The position numbers and the translations under genes are program-made. Of a DNA stretch of 64,000 nt, positions 13,580 to 59,518 are shown piece by piece. The first letter of the stretch is position 1; each line of letters opens with the position of its first letter. Where the stretch lies: contig JAWLHB010000006.1 of the NCBI GenBank assembly GCA_041690595.1, positions 124,001 through 188,000 of the forward strand, in the 5' to 3' direction. The DNA comes from Lentisphaeria bacterium (GTDB lineage Bacteria > Verrucomicrobiota > Lentisphaeria > JABSQK01 > JAWLHB01). The notes under the pieces were generated by a model. It was not told where the DNA came from. It made no database searches and saw only the letters and a program-made list of their open reading frames with translations.

Positions 13580-16500
13580 TTACCTGGTGGCTGTTTCCAT
13601 CGCGCCAGCCGGCAGGCGATTGGTGATCAGCCAGGAGATGGCTTGATCCATGCTGAGCTTTTCGGTGGCGAAGCGCACCGTGTCTGACGAGGCATTTGCG
13701 GTAAAGGTCTGCCTGCCATAGGTGCCATGGTCGCCGTGGTTTCCCAGATGCTGCCAGGCGGCGCCATTGAGCTGGAGCGGCAGGGAGACCTGCTCGCCAT
13801 TGAGCTTGACCTGCTTGACCACACCGTTGATGAGGCGGTACTGGAAGTGCCCGGCGGCGGCGGCGAGGTCATCTTTATCGGGCGCCTGGCGAGCGCCAAA
13901 GACGGCGAACGCCTGATTGCCCGAGTGGACCGTGCTGGAGAAGGTGAAGCTGTCGCACCACGTTTCGACCGTGTAGTGCCAGGTGTTGTTGGCAGTGCGC
14001 CAGGCGATGATGGCCTGCATTCGTGAGGTGAGTGGATCGATGAGGAGGAAACCATCGCTGCTGAAGCTGTCGAGCTGGCCATCGCCGACCATCATGCGCT
14101 GATGGTTCAGGCGATAGGCGATGACGCTGGTGGCGCCGAAGGGCGCAACGGCAGCGGCTTCGCCTGGCAGGGATGCAGTGGTCTGCGACGGCGCCACGGT
14201 GCTGAGGTCGACATGGAGCTGGAGGGCCATCTCGGCGACGCCTTCGGCATGGCTGAGCCCCTGGTTGTTGAGGTCAACAGTCAGCGACTGCATCAGGCGT
14301 GCGTCGATGGTGGTTTGCTCGAGGGTACCGGCCGTACCGGAGGTGCCGGCGCGACGAATGCCCTGCAGGGAGGTTGCCAGGCTGATAGACCTGTCACCGC
14401 CAATAGCGACCGGTGTCGGCAGCAGGGTGCCAATGACTTCCGCATAGTGATGTCGTGAATCGCGACTGGTGTCAGTGGTGGCACCGTTGGTCAGCATCCA
14501 GTAAGCGCGTGCGGGAGCATCGATGGTGTACCAGGAGCCGGGCTCCTGATCCCAGTTTTCGAGGGTGACGGTGCCATCGGCCGCGACGAAGAGCAGGGCT
14601 GCATTGCCACTGGCCACATCCATCACAAGTGCACCACGCCGGCTGATCGTCGTGCGATCGCCATTGTACTTGTAGCCACGCTCCTGTAGTGAATAGACCA
14701 GAAGAGGAGACGTCGGCGCGGCGACATAGTGCGCCTTCACCGCGACATCGGCATTGACCTGGAAGCTGATGATGCGGTTGGTGCTGGTGACATAGCCGCT
14801 CCAGCGCTCGAAAAGCAGCCGCGCCTGACCTTCACCGATGAACTCGGGTGCTTCGAGGATCACGTTGGCGCCATGGGCGACGGTCTTGGTATAGTTGGTA
14901 GTGCCCGACTGGCAGGTTGGCGATTCGATGCGCACACCAACGGGGTCGGATTCGATGGTCAGGATATGGATGGGCGAGGACTCATACCATGCCTTGACGG
15001 TGCCGTCGGCGTTGACCTGGAAGCCGATGATGCGGTTGGTGCTGGTGACGATACCGGTCCAGCGAACAAAGTGCATTCGCGAGGCGCCTTCGCCGATGAA
15101 CTCGGGCGCTTCGAGGATCACGTTGGCGCCATGGGCGACGGTCTTGGTATAGTTGGTAGTGCCCGATTGGCAGGTTGGCGATTCGATGCGCACGCCAACG
15201 GGGTTGGATTCGATGGTCAGGATATGGATGGGCGAGGACTCGTACCATGCCTTGACGGTGCCGTCGGCGTTGACCTGGAAGCCGATGATGCGGTTGGTGC
15301 TGGTGACGATACCGGTCCAGCGGACAAAGTGCATTCGCGAGGCGCCTTCACCGATGAACTCGGGTGCTTCGAGGATCACGTTGGCGCCATGGGCGACGGT
15401 CTTGGTATAGTTGGTGGTGCCCGATTGGCAGGTTGGCGATTCGATGCGCACGCCAACGGGGTTGGATTCGATGGTCAGGGTACGGATGGGCGAGGACTCG
15501 TACCATGCCTTGACGGTGCCGTCGGCGTTAACCTGGAAGCCGATGATGCGGTTGGTGCTGGTGACAATACCGGTCCAGCGGACAAAACGCATGCGCGAGG
15601 CACCTTCACCGATGAACTCGGGTGCTTCGAGGATCACGTTGGCGCCATGGGCGACGGTCTTGGTATAGTTGGTGGTGCCCGACTGGCAGGTGGGCGATTC
15701 GATGCGCACACCATCGGGGTTGGATTCGACGATCAGGTCATGGATGGGCCAGGCATCGTCGAGGACGTCGATCGTCACCGTGGTCACATTCGAGTCGAGT
15801 TCGCCGTCGTTGGCCTTGTAGGAGAAGCTGTCTTGACCAGTGAAGCCAACCGTCGGGGTATAGGTGAAGGAGCCATCCGGATTGAGCGAGAGGCTGCCGT
15901 TGGAGACGGGGGAGACGATTATGGCGGTCAGGGGGTCGCCCTGCGCGTCGGTATCGTTCACCAGCACGCCTGGGATCGCCACGACGAGGGTGGTATCCTG
16001 ATTCATAGTGTAGGTGTCGGCAACGGCCACCGGGGCGGTGTTGACTCCGCCCACGGCAATGGTGACGGCGACCACATTCGAGTCGAGTTGGCCGTCATTG
16101 GCCTTGTAGGTGAAGCTGTCTTGTCCGATGTAGCCAACGGTCGGCGTATAGGTGAAGGAGCCGTCCGCATCGAGCGAGAGGCTGCCATTGGAGACGGTGG
16201 AGACGAGTATGGCGGTCAGGGGGTCGCCCTGCGCATCAGTATCGTTCACCAGTACACCCGGGACGGCCACGACGAGGGTGGTATCCTGATCCATGTTGTA
16301 CGCGTCGGCAACGGCCACCGGGGCGGTGTTGACTCCGCCCACGGCAATGGTGACGGCGACCACATTCGAGTCAAGTTGGCCGTCATTGGCCTTGTAGGTG
16401 AAGCTGTCTTGTCCGATGTAGCCAACGGTCGGGGTATAGGTGAAGGAGCCGTCCGCATCGAGCGAGAGGGTGCCATTGGAGACGGTGGAGACGAGTATGG

Positions 16501-17734
16501 CGGTCAGGGGGTCGCCCTGCGCATCGAAGTCGTTCACCAGTACGCTCGGGGCGGCCACGACGAGGGTGGTATCCTGATCGACCGCGTAGGTGTCGGCAAC
16601 GGCTACCGGGGCCGTGTTGACGTCGAGGACGGTGATCGTCACCGTCGCCACATTCGAGTTCAGCTCGCCGTCGTTGGCCGTGTAGGTGAAGGAATCGTCA
16701 CCGGTGAAGCCAAGGGCCGGAGTGTAGGTGAAGGAGCCATCCGCATTGAGCGACATGGTGCCATTGGAGACGGTGGAGACGATTGTGGCGGTCAACGGGT
16801 CGCCTTGGGCGTCGGTATCATTGGCCAATACGCCTGGCAGGGCCACGACGAGGTTGGTATCCTGATTCACCGAGTAGGTGTCATCAACGGCGACCGGGGG
16901 GGTGTTGAGCTGAGGCAGTTGGATGCTGGTCCCGTTGAAGGTGATGCCGGCTTCGAACGCCAGGGCGCGGCCTTCCAGGATGCTGCCGGTATCCATCGTG
17001 ATGGACTGATCGGCGAGGATGGTGCCCTTGAATTCCGAGTAGGTGCCGAGAACGGCGGAGCTACCCACTTGCCAGAAGATATTGCGCGCCTGGGCGCCGC
17101 CGGCAAGAATGACCTTGATGCCGCTGCCAACCTGCAAGTCGTAAGCGAGCTGAAAGATCCAGACATCGTTCGGCCCACCAGTGAGAGTCACGTCGCCGCC
17201 GGTGATCAGAGCGGTGCTGGTGAACTTGTAGAGCCCGGGGACCAGGTTCGCGCCGCCGAGGTTGCCGCCGTTGGGATTCTCGAACGAGCCGCTCGGAACC
17301 GGCGTACGGTCTCTGGCTTCGTTATACGCGGTTTTCAGATCACTCTTGGCCGTGGTCAGGCGTCCAGGATCCTCCACCGATCCAGCGGGGCCGCTTGCGT
17401 CCACGCTGTAGATGGTGCCGTTAACCTGAGCAGCGGGAATACCGATGGCGGAACCGGATATCGGGCTCGCCCCGACATCGCCGGTGACCATGCCGCCGCC
17501 GGTGGTCGTGATGGCGGCACCTGATAGAATCGCGAAGTTGGAGGTGGTTCCGAGATTGATCGGCGCCAGGCTGAGTATGGAGGGGACCGAGCGGCCTTCG
17601 GTTGCGCCGGTAGCATTGTCCACCGGCGGGGGGGCTGCAAAGGTCAGTTGTGCGATCATCGCAGCCAAAGCGATGATGAAGCCGACGCAGGTGCGTTTCA
17701 TCTGGTTGATTTGTCGAGTGTTGGTTGCATTCAT
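13580..17734 (-). CDS. Secreted ice-binding (DUF3494) adhesin-like protein: signal peptide, DUF3494, 4 Big_9/VCBS Ig-like repeats, four 86-aa InlB-B-like repeats, duplicated unknown C-terminal module
   Basis: INLGTTSNFAILSG, LVPGLYKF, VWIFQ, AQARNIFWQVGSSA, FKGTILA, LEGRALA (DUF3494); NTAPVAVAD...GSFTYTP...DSFTYKANDG x4; F-x-RW[TS]G repeats x4. Confidence 0.9.
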   Translation of the reverse strand: MNATNTRQINQMKRTCVGFIIALAAMIAQLTFAAPPPVDNATGATEGRSVPSILSLAPINLGTTSNFAILSGAAITTTGGGMVTGDVGASPISGSAIGIPAAQVNGTIYSVDASGPAGSVEDPGRLTTAKSDLKTAYNEARDRTPVPSGSFENPNGGNLGGANLVPGLYKFTSTALITGGDVTLTGGPNDVWIFQLAYDLQVGSGIKVILAGGAQARNIFWQVGSSAVLGTYSEFKGTILADQSITMDTGSILEGRALAFEAGITFNGTSIQLPQLNTPPVAVDDTYSVNQDTNLVVALPGVLANDTDAQGDPLTATIVSTVSNGTMSLNADGSFTYTPALGFTGDDSFTYTANDGELNSNVATVTITVLDVNTAPVAVADTYAVDQDTTLVVAAPSVLVNDFDAQGDPLTAILVSTVSNGTLSLDADGSFTYTPTVGYIGQDSFTYKANDGQLDSNVVAVTIAVGGVNTAPVAVADAYNMDQDTTLVVAVPGVLVNDTDAQGDPLTAILVSTVSNGSLSLDADGSFTYTPTVGYIGQDSFTYKANDGQLDSNVVAVTIAVGGVNTAPVAVADTYTMNQDTTLVVAIPGVLVNDTDAQGDPLTAIIVSPVSNGSLSLNPDGSFTYTPTVGFTGQDSFSYKANDGELDSNVTTVTIDVLDDAWPIHDLIVESNPDGVRIESPTCQSGTTNYTKTVAHGANVILEAPEFIGEGASRMRFVRWTGIVTSTNRIIGFQVNADGTVKAWYESSPIRTLTIESNPVGVRIESPTCQSGTTNYTKTVAHGANVILEAPEFIGEGASRMHFVRWTGIVTSTNRIIGFQVNADGTVKAWYESSPIHILTIESNPVGVRIESPTCQSGTTNYTKTVAHGANVILEAPEFIGEGASRMHFVRWTGIVTSTNRIIGFQVNADGTVKAWYESSPIHILTIESDPVGVRIESPTCQSGTTNYTKTVAHGANVILEAPEFIGEGQARLLFERWSGYVTSTNRIISFQVNADVAVKAHYVAAPTSPLLVYSLQERGYKYNGDRTTISRRGALVMDVASGNAALLFVAADGTVTLENWDQEPGSWYTIDAPARAYWMLTNGATTDTSRDSRHHYAEVIGTLLPTPVAIGGDRSISLATSLQGIRRAGTSGTAGTLEQTTIDARLMQSLTVDLNNQGLSHAEGVAEMALQLHVDLSTVAPSQTTASLPGEAAAVAPFGATSVIAYRLNHQRMMVGDGQLDSFSSDGFLLIDPLTSRMQAIIAWRTANNTWHYTVETWCDSFTFSSTVHSGNQAFAVFGARQAPDKDDLAAAAGHFQYRLINGVVKQVKLNGEQVSLPLQLNGAAWQHLGNHGDHGTYGRQTFTANASSDTVRFATEKLSMDQAISWLITNRLPAGAMETATR
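14725..15745 (-). repeat. Intragenic 258-bp tandem repeat x4
   Basis: Near-identical LTIESNPVGVRIESPTCQSGTTNYTKTVAHGANVILEAPEF units; shadow ORFs recur at 14895, 15153, 15411. Confidence 0.92.
15760..16905 (-). repeat. Intragenic ~288-bp tandem repeat x4 (Big_9/VCBS)
   Basis: ggggcggtgttgactccgccc at 16032 and 16320; 96-aa units. Confidence 0.9.
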
Positions 17735-18185
17735 GAATCTGTTCCTTTATTTGTTTTGCCCTGTCTAACGCGCCCGGCTATCACAGTTCGGTACTTGTCG
17801 GTACGGGCTCGCGTTTTCGAAACGGATTCGCCGCGTGTTTTCTGGTTTGTCTTGGGAATGTGCGTCTTGACAAAGCAGTTGTGATGCTCATTACTACGCT
17901 ATCTTATCTTGGCAATAGGTTTCATCGATTGTGGGGGCGTGGTCTTTACTAATACCTATGCTTATATAAAGTCTTATTCTAAACTTACAGCTATTCCACG
18001 ATAGGCGACCGCGGGGCAATTTCGAGGCTGGAAGAAGCAGCCGATGGCTTCTACAGCGGCAGCAACGGGGGTGCGACAACCGGGCAATCCATGGGCAAGT
18101 GTGCCAGGGCGGGAGGGAAAAATGGTATGGAAAATACTTGCTCTTTTGAGTTGCAACTCTTTCGGGGCTGGGGGGTCCGAACGCC

Positions 18186-18446
18186 GCGCGCAATGGGAAT
18201 AAGGGGAAGAAAGGGAAGTATGCGGGGCTGGCGGGGGACGGGCGTTCCGCGGGGAGACGCGTGGCGTGCCCAGGGTGCGCGGGAGGGGGTTGAGCGTTGG
18301 GGAAGGGGCGACGCGCAACGCCGGTGCCACTCAGGCGAGTGGCGTGCCCAGGGAGCGCGGGGACGGGGTGAGCGGTGGGGAGGGGCAAGGTCCAACGCCG
18401 GTGCCACTCGGGCGAGTGGCGTGGCCGGGGTGCGCGGGGACGGGGT
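18186..18446. repeat. Second REP-like block, direct repeat of ~13239-13490
   Basis: gcgcgcaatgggaa...gggaagtatgcggggctggcgggggacg shared; hairpin copies at 18326 and 18403. Confidence 0.85.
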
Positions 18447-18470
18447 GAATGAGGGGGGATGGGCAACCTG

Positions 18471-21400
18471 CTATGGGGCGGGGATGAAGGCGGGAGGGAG
18501 CAGGTTGGTGAGGACATAATCGACGGCGGCGGGGAGATCGAGGTCGGCGTCGTTTATGGCGAGGGTCGCGGCGTGGATGCGGGCCGTGAAGCTGCTCTGA
18601 CGATAGATGCCGTCGTGGTTGTGGCTCCAGCGCGAGCCGCTGAGCGTGAGGAACACGGGGCGGGTATGGGCGCCGCCAAGGGCGACTGTCTGTTCGCGGC
18701 CGTAGGCGGACCAGAAGTCGAGGGTTGTATCGGCGACGTTCGCGCCGCCGATAAAGCGCCAGGTGCTGCCACCGATGTCCAGCAGGTGGTCGCGGGGCAA
18801 AGCGGCATCCCATGTTTCGACGCGGTAGAGGTTCTGGCCGTGCTGACGCCAAGCTCGCACCACGCGCACCTCGGCGGCCTCAAGGTCGAGGAGCAGAAAG
18901 CCGGCATAGCGCTGCGAGATCAGAGCGCCCTCCCCCGCCTGCAAGACGGTGTCCTGAAAGGTGTAGACGGCGATCGGGCCGGTGGTGGCAGGACGGAGTT
19001 CCGCCGGCTCGGCGGGCAGCACGTCGGGGTCGATCCCCAGTTCGCGCGCAAAATGGTCAACCACATCGGCATAGGGCCGGCTCTCGTCGTTGAGCCGGCG
19101 CGTGACGGCGATATCGATGCGGGCGGTGAAGCTGAGGCTATCAAAGCTGTCGGTATCACCGGCCTGACGCAGTCCGGTGAAGGCGGGGGCGACGTCGCCG
19201 TTGGCCCGGCCGCCGAGGTGCAAGGTTGCCGGGTGAAGCCGGCCGTAGAGCTGGCTGAACGTGTGGCTGTCGCCCGAGCCACTGCTGTGTGCGAGGGCTT
19301 CCAGACTATCGCCGTGGCCGAGATCCGCGGTATACCAGAGACCGCCGTCGTGCCAGGGGATGGCGGAGGTGGTGCCGTCGTGCCAGCGGAGCAGCGAGGT
19401 TGCGCGGCGGTGCTCCAAGTCGAGCAGCAGATAGCCGCGCGCCTGCAGCGGTCCGTCTCCCTCGCCGTAGCGCGCGCCACGGGCATCGAGGGAATAGACG
19501 ACGGTATAACTCTGAGGTGGCGGTTCGTAGACGATGGTGGCGGTTACCGGGGGCGACCAGTTGCCGGCTTCATCGGCGTACCGGGCGTAGACAGTGCGAC
19601 TGCCAGGTTGAGTCGAGCCGCCATAGGTGCTCAGGTCCCACGCGGCGCGGTTCGCCGCCAGCGGCTGCGCGGGGGACCAGATGGTGCCATTGTTGCTGAA
19701 GCGCATGCGGGCCACGCCGCTGTGGGCATCGCTGGCGCCAAGGTTGTCGAGCAGCACCGAGAGCGAGCTTGTGATTGCAGCGCCACCGGCAATGCGGAGG
19801 TTGCCGTCAACCGGAGCGGCAGTATCGATGCGGATTGCCCGATGTGCGGCCGCGCCCCAGTTGCCGGCGCCATCCACCGCCCGGACGTGGAGATACCAGA
19901 TGCCATCGGTGAGGCCCGTCCACGAGGCGCTGCCGGTTTGAGTGTCGCTACTTTCGTCTGGCAGGGATATGGCGTTCTGGTCGAGGAGGTAGCTGTAGCC
20001 GGCGATGCCGCTGGCATCGGCAGGGGGAGTCCAGGTGAAGGCGGGGTTGGCACTGGCGTACCAGCTGGTCCCAGATGGATGGGTGAGCGAGTGCAGCGCG
20101 GGTGGGGCCGGCGGGGTCCGATCGGGGGTCACCGTTACGTGGTGCGCGTCCCACCAGTAGTCGCTGGAGCGGGGCGGCGCATGCCCCTCGTTGGCGATGG
20201 TGATGTATACGGTGCGCTGACCGAGGTGTGCCGGAGCCGGTCGCCAGGCGATCGCGAAGCTGCTGCCGTTTGGTGTTGCCGAAGCGAGGAGCGCACCGTC
20301 GGGGCTGCCGAGCCGCAGTTCGGCGCGGATGCCGGCCCAGTGGACTGGCTGCACACCGGTGCCGGCGAAGAGCAACTCGCCCGTGACGCCAAGTGCGGAA
20401 CCCACTTCGACGGTGGTGCTGTTTGTCGCACTGGAACCGACGCGGAGGTCGTTGACAAAGGCGGCGTTGGTGGCGTCCCAGGCCCAGCCGACCATCTCGC
20501 CGGCGTCATCCTGAGCAGCGATGCCGAAATCGATGTCATTGGTCGCCTGCCACTGCCAGCGGAGGCGATAGGTCCAGCGCAGTTCATAGCCGTCGCCGCG
20601 GCGGATGGGGGTGACGCTGAGGAGCTCGGCCCACCAGGCGCCATCGCTGCCCGGCCAGACGCCGGAGGCGCCGGTCTCTTGATTCCAGTAGAAGGTGATG
20701 CTGCCGGTGTCGGAGTTGTCGCGACGCAGGCGCAGCCAGCAGTTGGCGAGATCTTCCGCTCCATCGGCGTCATGATAGATGGCGCGGACGCTGTAGGTGT
20801 GGGTTGGATAGAGGGTCTGATTGTCGGGTTCGTCGTAGATATCGGCGGCGGTGACATACGGCGGGGTGTTGTAGTGGGGTACGTACTTGCGCAGGACGAT
20901 CTCGTCGATGTAGGCGCCTTCGCCCTGAATCGAGCTGTCGCTTTCGAAGACAAAGGCGATCCAGACGTGGCTACGGCCAGTGACATCGCCGAGGACCGGC
21001 ACGCGGGTCAGGTCAATGCTTTCGGGCTGCCAGCCGTAGCTGTCGCCGCTGGTCTGGTAGCCATGGAAGTGGGTGCCGTCGATCGAGACCATCCACCGCA
21101 GGTAGTCGTAGCCGGGCTCGGAGGAGTTCCAGAGGTGAAAGCCGAGGAAGGCATTTTCGGCGTCGGCGAGGGAGAATGGGCCGAAGACCATCCACGCGTC
21201 CATATCGGGGGGATAGCCGCTGTGGGGCGAGCGGCCGTCGAAGCCACCAGAGGCGCACCAGGCGCTCCAGCCACCGTTCCACGAGCGATGGCTGTCGTCG
21301 TCCCAGTAGACGTCACCGGCGTAGCTGTGGTTGTCGAAGACCTGCCAGCCAGCGCTCGGGAAGTAGCCTTCGAAGTCCTCCCGCATGATGGTTTCCCATG

Positions 21401-21476
21401 CACTGTGCGCGCTGGGGAGGAGCGTGCAGCAGGCGAGGATCATGGCCGAAAAGAGGAGAGTCCGCGGGTTGTGCAT
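18471..21476 (-). CDS. Secreted multidomain protein: signal peptide, MAM/choice-of-anchor-J-like jelly-roll, FN3/Ig-like domains, same duplicated C-terminal module as the ice-binding protein
   Basis: MHNPRTLLFSAMILACCTLLPSAHSA signal; EDFEG..W, SEPGYDYL, EGAYIDEI; FTWTPPADASGIAGYSY, DGIWYLHVRAVDGAGNW. Confidence 0.8.
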   Translation of the reverse strand: MHNPRTLLFSAMILACCTLLPSAHSAWETIMREDFEGYFPSAGWQVFDNHSYAGDVYWDDDSHRSWNGGWSAWCASGGFDGRSPHSGYPPDMDAWMVFGPFSLADAENAFLGFHLWNSSEPGYDYLRWMVSIDGTHFHGYQTSGDSYGWQPESIDLTRVPVLGDVTGRSHVWIAFVFESDSSIQGEGAYIDEIVLRKYVPHYNTPPYVTAADIYDEPDNQTLYPTHTYSVRAIYHDADGAEDLANCWLRLRRDNSDTGSITFYWNQETGASGVWPGSDGAWWAELLSVTPIRRGDGYELRWTYRLRWQWQATNDIDFGIAAQDDAGEMVGWAWDATNAAFVNDLRVGSSATNSTTVEVGSALGVTGELLFAGTGVQPVHWAGIRAELRLGSPDGALLASATPNGSSFAIAWRPAPAHLGQRTVYITIANEGHAPPRSSDYWWDAHHVTVTPDRTPPAPPALHSLTHPSGTSWYASANPAFTWTPPADASGIAGYSYLLDQNAISLPDESSDTQTGSASWTGLTDGIWYLHVRAVDGAGNWGAAAHRAIRIDTAAPVDGNLRIAGGAAITSSLSVLLDNLGASDAHSGVARMRFSNNGTIWSPAQPLAANRAAWDLSTYGGSTQPGSRTVYARYADEAGNWSPPVTATIVYEPPPQSYTVVYSLDARGARYGEGDGPLQARGYLLLDLEHRRATSLLRWHDGTTSAIPWHDGGLWYTADLGHGDSLEALAHSSGSGDSHTFSQLYGRLHPATLHLGGRANGDVAPAFTGLRQAGDTDSFDSLSFTARIDIAVTRRLNDESRPYADVVDHFARELGIDPDVLPAEPAELRPATTGPIAVYTFQDTVLQAGEGALISQRYAGFLLLDLEAAEVRVVRAWRQHGQNLYRVETWDAALPRDHLLDIGGSTWRFIGGANVADTTLDFWSAYGREQTVALGGAHTRPVFLTLSGSRWSHNHDGIYRQSSFTARIHAATLAINDADLDLPAAVDYVLTNLLPPAFIPAP

Positions 21477-21540
21477 GGTCGTATTCCTTTTGTGCTTCAT
21501 CTGCACAGACGAGCGGGTTCGGTAGTTTATTCATATTGGG

Positions 21541-21824
21541 CGGGGACGCGGGGACGCGGGGATGGGCGGAGGTATGCAGGAGGATTAACCACAAAGAACG
21601 CAAAGATCGCAAAGAACGAGCGGGGGAGCACGGGGAAGCGGGGACGCGGGGATGGGCGGAGGTATGCAGGAGGATTAACCACAAAGAACGCAAAGATCGC
21701 AAAGAACGAGCGGGGAAGGGGGAGCGCGGGGATGGGCGGAGGTATGCGTGGTCGGACGGGTCGGACAAGTCTGACGGGTCGGACGAGGTCGGACGGCCGG
21801 GTGGGGACTCCCACGTTGAGCTCA
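21541..21824 (+). repeat. Composite intergenic repeat: two 90-bp units with TTAACCACAAAG-AACGCAAAG-ATCGCAAAG, then a GTCKGACRR 9-mer array
   Basis: Units at 21551 and 21641; 9-mers at 21751-21797. Confidence 0.9.
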
Positions 21825-53172: not shown

Positions 53173-55470
53173 CTAGCCGGCGGTCACCCGCAGAAGCTGC
53201 TCCAGATTGGTATCACCTTTGAAGATCTTGTAGACGCCGTCCTGCAGGATCGTGCGCATGCCGTCCTTCATTGCCTGTACCCGGATCTCCTCCACCGTCG
53301 ACCGTTTGGCAACGAGCTTCTTCAGGGCATCGGTAGCTTCCATCAGCTCATGGACACCGGTACGTCCCCGGTACCCGGTCTGCCCACACTTCGGACAGCC
53401 CACCGGACGGCAGATCTGCGCTGTGCGCGGGTCGATGTTCAGCTCCGGGAAGTAATTCTCGCCGTAGTAGTGACTGAGTCTTGCCATCTCTTCCGCGCTG
53501 GGCGTATACGGCTCCTTGCAGTCCTTGCAGAGCGTCCGGACCAGCCGCTGCGCGAGCACACCGACAAAGGCATCCGAGAAGTTCATCGGGTCGAGCCCCA
53601 TGTCGAGCAGACGGACGACGGTTTCAGGTGCCGAGTTCGTATGCAGGGTGGAGAAGACCAGATGTCCGGTGAGGGAGGCCTCGATTCCGCTGTGGGCGGT
53701 CTCATGGTCGCGCATTTCACCAATCAAAATGACATCCGGGTCGCAGCGCAGGAAGGCTCGCAACGCCGTGGCAAAGGTCAAACCGATGCGGCTGTGCACC
53801 TGGACCTGCTGCAGTCCCGGTTGGGTGATTTCCACTGGATCTTCGGCCGTCAGGATCTTGCGGTCAGGCTTGTTGATGAAGCCCAGCCAGGCATGCAGCG
53901 TCGTCGTCTTACCCGAGCCCGTCGGCCCCACCACCAGGATGATCCCATGGGGATGCGCCAGCATCCGCTGCGCCGATTCCTCGTTCCGTGCCGTCAGGTT
54001 GAGCTTCTCGAAGGGGAGCGGCTCACCGGCGGCAAGCACACGCATGACCGCGCTTTCCCCATTCACCGTCGGCAGCGTGGCAACACGCAACTCCAGCGGT
54101 CTGCCGGACATCTTCACCGAGATCTTACCATCCTGAGGTTTGCGCCGCTCCGCAATATCCAGCTTGGACAGGATCTTGATACGTGCCACGACAGCCCGCA
54201 TGTTCTGCGCCGGGATGCTCAGCACTTCTCGGCATACACCGTCCACACGCATCCGGACCACACCCGCCGACTCGTCCCGCCGAGGCTCCACGTGAATATC
54301 CGAAGCATTCATCTCGACCGCATCCACGATCAGACGATTGACCAGGTTCACGATGGCGGACGAATTCTCGTCCAGCAGCTCATCGCTGTCGCGCTCGAAT
54401 TCGCTCGTTACCTCGATCAGGGATTCTTCCTGCAGCTGTTCGACGATCTGTTCGAGGTCAACTTCCTCCTCCTCATCCTCCAGCGCGGCAAGTTCATAAC
54501 CCAGATACCGCAGAATGTCCTCCTGCAGGCCGACGCGTATTTCGAAGGTCTGGGCGCCGAGAAGATGCTGGATCTCCATCAGCTTGTCGGAATCGTTGGG
54601 ATTGTCGATGAGGATGAGCGTCTCCCCATCCGGTGTCTGCAGCGGCACCCAGTAGTTCTTGGCCAGGTAGGTGACGTTCAGGGCCTGCAGCAGCTCCTGA
54701 TCGACCAGCATCTGCTCGTCGAAGTTCAGAAATGGGACCTGGTAGAACTGCGCCAGCGAATGCCCCAGCTCTTCGCGCGGCACCTCGAACATCTTGCCCA
54801 GCATCACCGAAATCGGATATCCGTGCGTCCGTGCTTTTTCCTCTGCCTGATCCAGCTCATCCAGGCTGATACGCTTGGTCTGAATCAGGTAATCGTAGGG
54901 GCCCGACGTGCTCTTCAGCTCGTAGCGGAACTTGCTGGCTATCACCTTGGCGATGGCCAACGCATGAATCACGTCCTGCTCCGAGAAGTCGCCGCCGCCT
55001 TGCCGATTGATCACCTGCAGCACGCCCAGCAGCGTCTCCTTGTGGCGGATCGGCACCACGACCATGCTCTCCGTCAGGTACCCCGTATCATGATCGTAGC
55101 TGCTGTCGAAGGTCAGTTGCGGATGGATCGCCGAGAGCGCTTCCGCATCGTAGACATCCTGGATGAGAATCGGCCGATGGCTCATGGCCACATAGCCGGC
55201 AATCGAGGTGGGGCTGATCGGCAGCCGGATCTCCTCCATGTCGTCGCCGCTGGTGCGGTACCACGAGATGATCTCGCCGGTCTGCCCATCCTTGCGGTAA
55301 ATCGTCAGCCGCTCCGCCTGCATCAGGTCGAGCACATCCTGCTCGAGTTCCCAAATGATGTCTTCGAAGTGATCGGCTTCGTGAATGCGCTGGTAGATCA
55401 GGTTCAGCTTGGTCTGGTACTCGATCGAACCGTGACCGAGCGACATCGTCCCATCTTCCATGGTGGCCAT
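53173..55470 (-). CDS. GAF domain + GspE/PilB family secretion ATPase
   Basis: GAF (SIAGYVA, FDSSYD..TGY, GVLQVIN); ASDIHVEP, GPTGSGKTTTL, EDPVE, DPDVILIGEMRD, STLHTN, CKDC...CPKC. Confidence 0.92.
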   Translation of the reverse strand: MATMEDGTMSLGHGSIEYQTKLNLIYQRIHEADHFEDIIWELEQDVLDLMQAERLTIYRKDGQTGEIISWYRTSGDDMEEIRLPISPTSIAGYVAMSHRPILIQDVYDAEALSAIHPQLTFDSSYDHDTGYLTESMVVVPIRHKETLLGVLQVINRQGGGDFSEQDVIHALAIAKVIASKFRYELKSTSGPYDYLIQTKRISLDELDQAEEKARTHGYPISVMLGKMFEVPREELGHSLAQFYQVPFLNFDEQMLVDQELLQALNVTYLAKNYWVPLQTPDGETLILIDNPNDSDKLMEIQHLLGAQTFEIRVGLQEDILRYLGYELAALEDEEEEVDLEQIVEQLQEESLIEVTSEFERDSDELLDENSSAIVNLVNRLIVDAVEMNASDIHVEPRRDESAGVVRMRVDGVCREVLSIPAQNMRAVVARIKILSKLDIAERRKPQDGKISVKMSGRPLELRVATLPTVNGESAVMRVLAAGEPLPFEKLNLTARNEESAQRMLAHPHGIILVVGPTGSGKTTTLHAWLGFINKPDRKILTAEDPVEITQPGLQQVQVHSRIGLTFATALRAFLRCDPDVILIGEMRDHETAHSGIEASLTGHLVFSTLHTNSAPETVVRLLDMGLDPMNFSDAFVGVLAQRLVRTLCKDCKEPYTPSAEEMARLSHYYGENYFPELNIDPRTAQICRPVGCPKCGQTGYRGRTGVHELMEATDALKKLVAKRSTVEEIRVQAMKDGMRTILQDGVYKIFKGDTNLEQLLRVTAG

Positions 55471-57886: not shown

Positions 57887-59518
57887 CTACCGCCCACCCT
57901 TCCACGGCCCAAACCGCAGAATGATCGAGCCATCCGATGCAATCGCCCCGTACGAATCCTCGGATACTATCTCGAACGAATCCTCCGCCGATTTTCCAGC
58001 CAAAACCTCGGCCAAAACCTCGGTCGGCTTGTCCTCAACGTGAGGATGGTTCTCCGAACCGCGACTGCCCTCAACGTCGGAGGGGTTCTCCGAACCGCGA
58101 CTAGCGCCGTCGCCATCCCCCCGCGTGCTTTCATTACCACTGCCGTTAGCCTCGACAGGCCCGACAACGTGAGAGGGGTTCTCCGAACCGCGACTAGAGC
58201 CATCGCCATCCCCCCGCGTGCTTTCATTACCACTGCTGTTAGCCTCGACAGGCCCGACAACGTGAGAGGGGTTCTCCGAACCGCGACTAGCGCCTTCGCC
58301 ATCCCCCCGCGTGCTTTCATCACCACTGCCGTTAGCCTCGACAGGCCCGACAATGTGGGAGGGGTTCTCCGAACCGCGACTAGCGCCTTCGCCATCCCCC
58401 CGCGTGCTTTCATTACCACTGCCGTTAGCCTCGACAGGCCCGGCAATGTGGGAGGGGTTCTCCGAACCGCGACTAGAGCCATCGCCATCCCCCCGCGTGC
58501 TTTCATTACCACTGCTGTTAGCCTCGACAGGCCCAACAACGTGAGAGAGGTTCTCCGAACCGCGACTAGAGCCATCGCCATCTCCGCCCACGCTCAAAAC
58601 CTCGGCCAAAACCTCGGTCGTATCGAGGGGTCTGGGGAGGTGCGCCTCCCCAGCGGGGGCCGGGGCAGCGCCCCGCCGCTCCTCTCCGGCGCCCCGCGTC
58701 TCCGCCTCTTCGCCTCCCCATAGCTTGTCGGGATCTGGAGATCCGATCTCCGGAACCCGACAAGACGTATCGAGGGGTCTGGGGAGGTGCGCCTCCCCAG
58801 CGGGGTCCGGGGCAGCGCCCCGCCGCTCCTCTCCAGCGCCCCGCCGCTCCTCTCCGCGTCCCGTCCCGCCCTTCTTCGCCACATGCCGATACCCCTGCGA
58901 CGTCGCGCCGCTTGTCACCGTCACCTCCGCATCCTCCAACTCCACCACCACCCGCACCGACTCATCCTCCGCCGTCCGCGACACCTGTCGTTCCTTCACC
59001 CGCGCCTTCTCCTCCCAGCCGAACCCCAGCACATGCACCAGCCAGCTCTCCGAATCCATCATCGTCTCCAAGGAACCGCGCTGCGCCACCTCCGCCAGCA
59101 CCTTCATGTACTCCTTCGCCGCCCGCACCCGGTCATACAGCACCGGCTCCTGCATCAAGCCCCCCTCGCCGTCCTTCACCCAGCGCACCCCCCGCACCGC
59201 CGCCGACGACCGATCCACCTCCCCATTTGCCGACATCACGTCCGCCATCGACGTCATCGCCATCGCCCCCAGCATCCCCGCGAGCTCCATCATCGACGGA
59301 AACCGCATCCCCTCCCGATCTTCCAGCGCCACCTTCTCCTCACCTGCCAACTCCCGAACCAGCAACTGCACTCGCCCATCCTGCAGCAACTCCGACGCTC
59401 GCGCCTTCGCGAACGACTCCGCATAACCTGCCCGCAGCGCCGCCTTTGCCGCACAGTAATCCTTCACATACTCCCCCGCAAACCGCCGCATCCGCTTGCT
59501 CAGTCCCCTCATCTCCAC
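57887..59518 (-). CDS. Orphan terminase small subunit-like protein with repeat-derived C-terminal extension
   Basis: LSKRMRRFAGEYVKDYCAAKAALRAGYA...ASELL matches the Terminase_2 pattern; ELAGM..AMTSMADV and LYDRVRAA follow; RBS GGAGG. Real 3' extent uncertain. Confidence 0.72.
   Translation of the reverse strand: MEMRGLSKRMRRFAGEYVKDYCAAKAALRAGYAESFAKARASELLQDGRVQLLVRELAGEEKVALEDREGMRFPSMMELAGMLGAMAMTSMADVMSANGEVDRSSAAVRGVRWVKDGEGGLMQEPVLYDRVRAAKEYMKVLAEVAQRGSLETMMDSESWLVHVLGFGWEEKARVKERQVSRTAEDESVRVVVELEDAEVTVTSGATSQGYRHVAKKGGTGRGEERRGAGEERRGAAPDPAGEAHLPRPLDTSCRVPEIGSPDPDKLWGGEEAETRGAGEERRGAAPAPAGEAHLPRPLDTTEVLAEVLSVGGDGDGSSRGSENLSHVVGPVEANSSGNESTRGDGDGSSRGSENPSHIAGPVEANGSGNESTRGDGEGASRGSENPSHIVGPVEANGSGDESTRGDGEGASRGSENPSHVVGPVEANSSGNESTRGDGDGSSRGSENPSHVVGPVEANGSGNESTRGDGDGASRGSENPSDVEGSRGSENHPHVEDKPTEVLAEVLAGKSAEDSFEIVSEDSYGAIASDGSIILRFGPWKGGR
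58001..58620. repeat. 93-bp tandem array with REP-like core GGTTCTCCGAACCGCGACT, bounded by 26-bp direct repeats
   Basis: Cores at 58050, 58086, 58179, 58272, 58365, 58458, 58551; caaaacctcggccaaaacctcggtcg at 58001 and 58595. Confidence 0.93.
58621..58858. repeat. 147-bp-period duplication of a double-hairpin element
   Basis: tatcgaggggtctggggaggtgcgcctccccagcgggg..cggggcagcgccccg at 58621 and 58768. Confidence 0.88.

Follow-up and report, generated by a model that had tools for sequence, protein, structure and literature searches.

We report here on two neighbouring genes, P0001 and P0002, found in a 64,000-nucleotide stretch of the genome of a Lentisphaeria bacterium (GenBank assembly GCA_041690595.1, contig JAWLHB010000006.1, positions 124,001 to 188,000 of the forward strand; hereafter the window), whose products end in the same C-terminal tail in spite of wholly different N-terminal regions. 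The genome from which the window was taken is assembled to 8.1 Mb in 99 contigs at 97% completeness, and is the sole member of its family in the genome set that we compared. In P0001, a signal peptide is followed by an ice-binding-like domain, four Big_9/cadherin-like repeats, four 86-residue repeats and, finally, a tail made of two predicted beta-barrels. The coordinates of both genes and of their parts are given below in window numbering, with E values for the tail units obtained with a single-unit hidden Markov model (HMM).

13580..17734, reverse strand: gene P0001, 1384 amino acids, stop included
16922..17530, reverse strand: P0001 residues 69-271, Ice_binding-like domain (PF11999, E 1.4e-55)
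15755..16906, reverse strand: P0001 residues ~277-660, four Big_9/cadherin-like repeats (PF17963, E 3.6e-81, 4 stretches; 288-nt DNA repeat D2)
14726..15742, reverse strand: P0001 residues ~665-1003, four 86-amino-acid repeats abutting the tail (258-nt DNA repeat D1)
14216..14713, reverse strand: P0001 tail unit A, residues 1008-1173 (unit HMM 1e-39; ~ten strands and two helices predicted by AlphaFold)
13592..14152, reverse strand: P0001 tail unit B, residues 1195-1381 (unit HMM 4e-40; modelled with AlphaFold)
18471..21506, reverse strand: gene P0002, 1011 amino acids from a GTG start
19038..19526, reverse strand: P0002 tail unit A, residues 661-823 (unit HMM 8e-37)
18495..18989, reverse strand: P0002 tail unit B, residues 840-1004 (unit HMM 2e-42; AlphaFold single-unit model, pLDDT 94.8)

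The P0001 ice-binding domain scored 208.9 bits against the NCBIfam model IBP_CFB, which is under that model's 400-bit cut-off, and the region upstream of the P0002 tail gave only weak Y_Y_Y, Big_13 and OmpL47-type matches in Pfam and NCBIfam. Starting P0002 from the ATG at residue 11 would yield a 1001-amino-acid product, which corresponds to the database form P0021. A preliminary description of this DNA, made from the sequence alone, had assigned signal peptides to both proteins, and their N-termini are indeed basic and then hydrophobic; the C-terminal ends read ...ETATR or ...FIPAP. The same description had claimed that the last ~370 amino acids of P0001 align with the last ~345 of P0002, that each tail contains two ~170-residue copies of one unit, and that the N-terminal parts are unrelated, and all of this was borne out. 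BLASTP aligned P0001 residues 1003-1375 with P0002 residues 660-1004 at an E value of 4e-27 (27% identity over 380 columns), with coordinates and motifs as originally described, and no similarity was found between the two proteins outside their tails, where Pfam content differs and all other high-scoring segment pairs had E values of ~1 or above. Pairwise BLAST of the tail halves was marginal (6e-5 for P2_A with P2_B, 7e-4 for P1_B with P2_A, and 2e-3 for P1_A with P2_B) and not significant for P1_A with P1_B. The duplication is nonetheless settled, because a single-unit HMM made from 98 units and stand-alone homologues matches both halves of the P0001 and P0002 tails (1e-36 to 1e-42), as well as both halves of every other two-unit protein. 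The ~360-residue tail is thus a tandem of two homologous ~170-residue units, whose invariant positions, in the tail alignment, are mostly Gly and Tyr, plus one Arg.

This tail is a real protein domain family for which neither Pfam nor NCBIfam holds a model. No match was obtained to either library with the P0001 and P0002 tails at E<=0.1, nor did Pfam match the tail in any of the 21 scanned proteins of the window genome or in P0001. When 67 single units were scanned member by member against Pfam (2025 copy) and NCBIfam 20.0, no family was matched by more than two of them, and the weak T2SSK matches seen in two of the 67 (best E 0.01) were taken as chance. Sequence profile searches of the PDB gave no match at E<=1 with a 27-row alignment of the tails of this genome (A1), and chance-level matches only (E>=0.098) with a 67-row alignment of single units (A2). 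ESM Atlas returned no usable match for the tail or for the stand-alone barrel, a search of genome contigs for loci related to one of the tails gave no match, and our search of the literature found no description of the tail domain, nor of a barrel gene upstream of gspE. The preliminary description did not recognise the tail as PEP-CTERM, as a type IX secretion system (T9SS) C-terminal domain (CTD) or as an autotransporter domain, and PF07589, the CTD models and PF03797 all failed to match.

Within the window genome, the two-unit tail is carried by 27 open reading frames (ORFs) of 529 to 4264 amino acids, with no more than 18 residues following it, a result on which phmmer, hmmsearch and the genome search agree; two additional fragments at contig edges carry part of the tail. 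A few small ORFs in this genome gave weak single-unit matches (E 1e-5 to 1e-8). One uninterrupted ORF of 18,216 amino acids (G000:C17:23773-78420, reverse strand) ends in two barrel units, and the ORF next to it (C17:20579-23770, reverse strand; 1064 amino acids) has one weak unit match. The regions in front of the tail are highly varied, in agreement with the swappable passengers proposed in the preliminary description: among the 21 scanned proteins and P0001, Pfam identified Peptidase_M6, Peptidase_S8 (twice), FGE-sulfatase, DUF4838, Ice_binding (twice, counting P0001), Chlam_PMP, PKD, Kelch, Flg_new_2, Big_9/cadherin and Calx-beta, the last of which very often immediately precedes the tail. 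Two members of 575 amino acids have no Pfam domain whatever. By a simple hydrophobicity test, 25 of 28 N-termini resemble signal peptides, and the other three belong to one ORF truncated by a contig end, one with masked bases and one that is over-extended. In the tree, the A units group in one clade (SH-aLRT 94) and the B units in a second (SH-aLRT 99), and an identity of 77-85% is shared by the tails of the FGE-sulfatase protein, the Chlam_PMP giant and an S8 protease, against a median pairwise tail identity of 28%. Such separate clades, together with highly alike tails on unrelated proteins, show that one ancestral tandem was moved repeatedly onto different passengers, in part recently. Genes that recur beside the tail genes are sulfatase, GntR/LacI, DUF1559/N_methyl, GH123-like and DUF4838 genes; a guess from gene sizes that these neighbours formed an ABC/MacAB-TolC set was rejected, as Pfam showed them to belong to families abundant in the Planctomycetes-Verrucomicrobia-Chlamydiae (PVC) group.

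AlphaFold2 modelled the whole tail from alignment A1 with high confidence (pLDDT 89.5, pTM 0.87), the linker between the units being the only region of low confidence, and modelled a single unit (P0002 unit B, from A2) at a pLDDT of 94.8. In both models, each unit consists of ~ten beta-strands and, after them, a C-terminal two-helix hairpin. The unit is thus predicted to be an up-and-down beta-barrel closed by the hairpin, and the two units of a tail are predicted to pack into one compact body. The nearest structural neighbours of the single unit by Z score were Cap15 (9.6), OmpW (9.0), BFA1 (8.8), NspA (8.6), DUF3598 (7.8) and the C-lobe of TbpB (7.8). Foldseek paired the single unit with LolA/LolB, LprG, YwiB, NHBA and HpuA at TM scores of 0.24-0.39, and paired the whole tail best with the double-barrel proteins DUF3598 and BFA1 (E 2e-5 to 6e-5, TM 0.25-0.33). 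All manner of small meander barrels are found among these neighbours, which give the fold class of the unit and not its family. By the column statistics of A1, several strands have charges on both of their faces and hydrophobic runs are three residues long, and the unit finishes with an amphipathic helical hairpin, not with a terminal aromatic strand. On these sequence patterns, and not on model coordinates, we read the barrels as probably soluble.

To look beyond the window genome, 1.84 billion representative proteins were searched with a profile at E<=1e-3, which returned 105 matches; 106 proteins were examined. About 23 of the matches were the window genome's own, about 22 were two-unit C-terminal tails from metagenomes, and the remainder were mostly stand-alone proteins of ~190-215 amino acids in which a signal peptide leads directly into one unit. 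Of the 106, 46 have two units, and in every one of these the tail is C-terminal, with at most 17 residues after it. The passengers found elsewhere include S8, trypsin and reprolysin proteases, and proteins with LamG, Ig, fn3, PKD and Calx-beta domains. Four metagenome tails (P0025, P0031, P0034 and P0036) have A and B units that cluster together (SH-aLRT 90), apart from the A and B clades of the window genome, a sign that the tandem may have originated repeatedly. A further sample of the phylum, in which eight candidates were scored per genome, placed the unit in 7 of 400 genomes. One stand-alone homologue stems from a Verrucomicrobiota bacterium. In another family of the same phylum (f52), 55 of 81 genomes, and all 15 genera, contain the unit, at one to five copies each, either as stand-alone genes or as single C-terminal units on proteins of ~800-1360 amino acids.

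It is in this family that a link to type II secretion systems (T2SS) became visible. In 21 of 58 loci examined outside the window genome, most of them from f52, the gene for a T2SSE ATPase (GspE-type, MshEN-bearing) has a stand-alone unit gene immediately upstream of it in the same orientation, at distances ranging from a one-base overlap to ~200 bases, and the T2SSE gene is often followed by T2SSF. These loci cover 13 of the 15 genera; for the other two (g200 and g203), no linked copy was present in the loci fetched. In three 20-kb stretches of complete genomes, the unit gene sits within full T2SS clusters, which include a secretin GspD with an N0 domain, T2SSK, T2SSJ-like pseudopilins, T2SSM_b and a PilN-like protein. 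In a relative of the window genome from the same class (G283), two genes that carry the unit lie directly against a T2SS K/J/F/E cluster. In the tree, the T2SS-linked proteins fall into a clade of their own (SH-aLRT 100), and they have cleavable-looking signal peptides, with neither a lipobox nor a prepilin motif. In the linked stand-alone proteins of loci L080-L142 (alignment A3), the barrel is followed by acidic or Thr/Gly-rich low-complexity ends, and a subset of them shows a conserved 'DASLFP' motif. For these trees we used a quick IQ-TREE run on 71 rows, for which, after the exclusion in advance of 18 named long-branch rows, each group was randomly sampled from 176 units. A FastTree of the 176 units had joined unit B to the T2SS-linked clade as its sister at a support of 44, and we rejected this join, as IQ-TREE did not recover it. 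A conserved linkage to gspE, gspF or gspD is a property of the stand-alone homologues only. The only T2SS link of tail genes in the window genome is on contig C27 (27852-36001; locus L148), where two tail genes have a T2SSF gene (372 amino acids) and an ECF sigma gene immediately upstream of them in the same orientation; a YdbH/AsmA-like gene (1167 amino acids) lies just beyond. A complex prediction pairing a T2SS-linked barrel with the C-terminal unit of a cargo protein, both from G360 (A3 and A4), scored 0.00 in a run without controls, and speaks neither for nor against binding. In the window itself, an orphan GAF-MshEN-T2SSE ATPase gene (53173-55470, reverse strand; 765 amino acids) has no further T2SS genes beside it.

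We infer that sorting or anchoring is the leading reading of these data, and give about an even chance to the tail being a common export or surface-localisation module. We are led to it because the tail is folded, probably soluble, strictly C-terminal and common to many proteins exported by Sec, and because it has been exchanged in recent times between passengers that are unrelated. In the mechanism that we envisage, Sec would export the tail-bearing protein, the tail would then fold in the periplasm, and the folded tail would be what an outer-membrane step recognises, what holds the passenger at the cell surface, or both. At least 27 Sec-exported and otherwise unrelated proteins of the window genome, including proteases and adhesin-like repeat, ice-binding-like, FGE-sulfatase-like and DUF4838 proteins, would be handled in this way. 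The best candidate for the outer-membrane step would be the T2SS, since stand-alone homologues are gene-linked to it; within the broader proposal, a specific T2SS address or dock is a tentative idea that takes up about half of its probability. Stated most sharply, that the barrel is a discrete and transferable recognition domain for type II secretion, the idea is speculative and, in our judgement, rather unlikely. Were it correct, the stand-alone barrel encoded before gspE-gspF would be a new periplasmic T2SS accessory or a model cargo, and proteins ending in one or two barrels would be recruited to the secretin through the barrel and then held on the surface.

Several results weigh against localisation as the role of the tail. 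The alignment reveals no conserved cleavage motif at the junction between passenger and tail or at the extreme C-terminus, and no dedicated or recurrent machinery was found beside the 27 tail genes. No unit gene lies upstream of the window genome's best gspE-gspF-J-K cluster (contig C53), and 37 of the 58 loci examined outside this genome are without a T2SS link. The T2SS-linked clade is separate, and the tree supports no particular relation of it to the tail units, which makes any transfer of function from one to the other a long step. At E<=1e-5, the domain is missing from all 40 nearest relatives, which belong to the same order or class. More than 100 residues follow the unit in three of the 106 proteins, all of them single-unit (P0047, P0058 and P0067), and a 726-amino-acid protein of G283 carries its unit N-terminally. 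The structural matches are generic, with a best Z of 9.6 and 102 chains at Z>=5. Lastly, the commonest form outside the window genome is the passenger-less barrel, and a secreted stand-alone form of ~200 amino acids is odd for a pure sorting tag. The undescribed sorting or anchoring system of the preliminary description thus stands in part: the C-terminal position, the signal peptides, the varied passengers and the lack of a library model all agree with it, but the 27 genes lack dedicated machinery nearby, the domain elsewhere is mostly stand-alone, and the only link is to a known system, the T2SS, through distant homologues. The tails do align, they match no catalytic or anchoring family in Pfam or NCBIfam, and their homologues are not mostly internal or cytoplasmic.

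The abundance of passenger-less barrels suggests that the barrel has a function of its own, for example binding something. On one alternative explanation, the tail would be a module for ligand binding or targeting that the passengers have in common and that has no export role: a calycin- or LolA-like pair of barrels would bind lipid, glycan or another common target and deliver varied enzymes and adhesins to one substrate or matrix, in the way of tandem carbohydrate-binding modules. That single barrels with a signal peptide prevail outside the window genome would mean that the barrel works without a passenger, the predicted fold resembles that of ligand-binding barrels (LolA/LolB, LprG, nitrobindin, YceI-like proteins, DynF, TbpB and haemophilin), and sulfatase and glycoside-hydrolase-like genes are abundant near the tail genes. 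However, binding modules are usually placed more freely than a tail that is C-terminal in each of the two-unit proteins, the passengers include proteases and adhesin-like repeats and not one class of enzyme, in 13 of 15 genera one paralogue shares a conserved operon with gspE-gspF, and no conserved polar pocket residues stand out. We regard this explanation as possible, if clearly less probable than a role in localisation.

Two further explanations appear to us improbable. The tail might instead serve self-association, linking passengers to each other or to free barrels in a surface layer or multi-enzyme assembly in the manner of cohesin and dockerin. The confident packing of the two barrels in cis (pTM 0.87), the presence in f52 genomes of free single barrels alongside single-unit cargo, and the possibly repeated origin of the tandem are compatible with such a scaffold, but contacts in trans are conjectural, and the window genome sets its 27 tandem tails against the few weak single-unit ORFs mentioned above; we thus give it little credence. 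Even less probable is an integral outer-membrane anchor or translocator, with two small transmembrane barrels inserted by BAM and used as an autotransporter beta-domain would be. OmpW, NspA, PagL, OprF/OmpA and designed transmembrane barrels are in fact among the top neighbours of the unit (Z 7.8-9.0), and one member of the tail family bears Chlam_PMP repeats, which in Chlamydiae ride on autotransporter barrels. Soluble barrels score equally, however (Cap15, BFA1 and DUF3598, at the Z values given above), charges lie on both strand faces (for example at tail positions 54-58, 92-102, 250-256 and 304-314), hydrophobic runs span three consecutive residues, each unit closes with the amphipathic hairpin so that the proteins end in helices and not in an aromatic residue, and PF03797, the autotransporter beta-domain family, is not matched.

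A role of the tail in export or surface localisation invites comparison with systems already described. T9SS CTDs are folded C-terminal domains found on many unrelated Sec-exported proteins of one genome, where they serve outer-membrane translocation and surface attachment, and each is a single Ig-like beta-sandwich of ~70-100 residues. The tail resembles T9SS CTDs of types A and B in being a folded C-terminal domain common to many unrelated Sec-exported proteins, but it is ~360 residues long and is predicted to form two barrels with helices, and the CTD models (Por_Secre_tail/TIGR04183 and TIGR04131) matched neither P0001 nor P0002 at E<=0.1, nor any of the 67 units at E<=1. Neither does it look like PEP-CTERM, as its C-termini lack the PEP motif, hydrophobic helix and basic tail and PF07589 gave no match. 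By predicted fold, the closest likeness to the whole tail is seen in DUF3598 (PDB 2o62) and BFA1 (PDB 5yvf), which have two packed lipocalin-like barrels per chain and a Foldseek probability of 1.00 to the tail; a single barrel of the tail compares with them at Z 7.8-8.8 (for BFA1, Z 8.8 over 115 residues, rmsd 3.7). Global superposition is poor, however (TM 0.25-0.33, rmsd 13-14), no sequence similarity was found in Pfam or with PDB profiles from A1 and A2 at E<=1, and by their PDB titles these are stand-alone proteins and not tails of secreted passengers. The half-barrels of LolA, LolB and LprG are periplasmic, ~180 residues long, combine a beta-barrel with helices and bind hydrophobic ligands, and Foldseek assigned them probabilities of 0.96-0.99; in the LolA/LolB superfamily the half-barrel is open, with 11 strands and lid helices. 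TM scores to the tail unit were 0.24-0.36 and the VIA Z was 6.4, Pfam LolA gave no match, and the helices of the unit come after the barrel, as a C-terminal hairpin.

The closest known analogue of the tail is the C-terminal barrel of type XI secretion system (T11SS) cargo (PMC12282271). Such cargo is there described as Sec-dependent, with a soluble small C-terminal beta-barrel and variable N-terminal effector domains, and some of it duplicates the barrel, as in the bilobed TbpB (PMC12282271). The TbpB C-lobe compares with the unit at Z 7.8 over 107 residues (rmsd 3.1), and NHBA, HpuA, fHbp and haemophilin are also similar; T11SS cargo barrels fall at Z 6-7.8, a range in which many unrelated barrels score alike. 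There are differences nonetheless: the tail has no sequence match in Pfam to the TbpB-barrel or lipoprotein-C families, its unit is predicted to consist of ~ten strands and a C-terminal helical hairpin with no handle or pedestal, and its organism belongs to the PVC group and is not a proteobacterium. The T11SS outer-membrane protein family PF04575 (DUF560/SlipAM) had no match in the window genome, and likewise none in 14 of 14 control genomes. With regard to the T2SS, published work describes cargo that is retained on the surface via a C-terminal element, for example VesB with GlyGly-CTERM and rhombosortase (PMC13393428), as well as surface lipoproteins delivered by this system (PMC12802150). 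Proteases with VesB-like Ig domains (PF22544) are also among the tail passengers. GlyGly-CTERM, however, is a short motif with a transmembrane helix that rhombosortase cleaves, whereas the tail is a large and probably soluble folded domain with no hydrophobic C-terminal helix.

Other features of the window lie beside these genes. A GC-rich unit of ~77 nt, each copy with a hairpin of 7-bp stem (GCCACTC-N4-GAGTGGC), forms tandem arrays 3' of both P0001 and P0002 (12948-13520 and 18248-18468). Genome-wide, its core motif has 187 occurrences; these form 83 clusters, spread over 40 of the 99 contigs and often at contig ends. A tie between these repeats and the tail family was considered and rejected, as they lie within 1.5 kb of only four of 30 family ORFs checked, and the array looks like a REP-like intergenic element that is unspecific to tail genes. 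Just 5' of the P0002 start (21541-21718), there are two direct copies of 88 nt, 98% identical and 90 nt apart. Further away, the first 140 residues of a 543-amino-acid ORF (57887-59518, reverse strand) match a terminase small subunit (Terminase_2, 1.7e-11), and this ORF may be a prophage remnant.

Little is known of how bacteria of the PVC group get their numerous large adhesins and degradative enzymes onto the outer membrane or past it, and how the T2SS chooses its folded substrates is a long-standing open question. Recruitment of T2SS substrates is, in fact, described in one account as still elusive and probably structural (PMC7949064). If the barrel does act as an address for type II secretion, it would be the first portable and folded 'address tag' for this system. 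Even as a mere binding module, the tail would represent a new domain family, useful for annotation. A compact and confidently modelled domain, carried by ~27 exported proteins of one genome and with relatives in T2SS clusters across a bacterial family, offers a testable handle on both questions.

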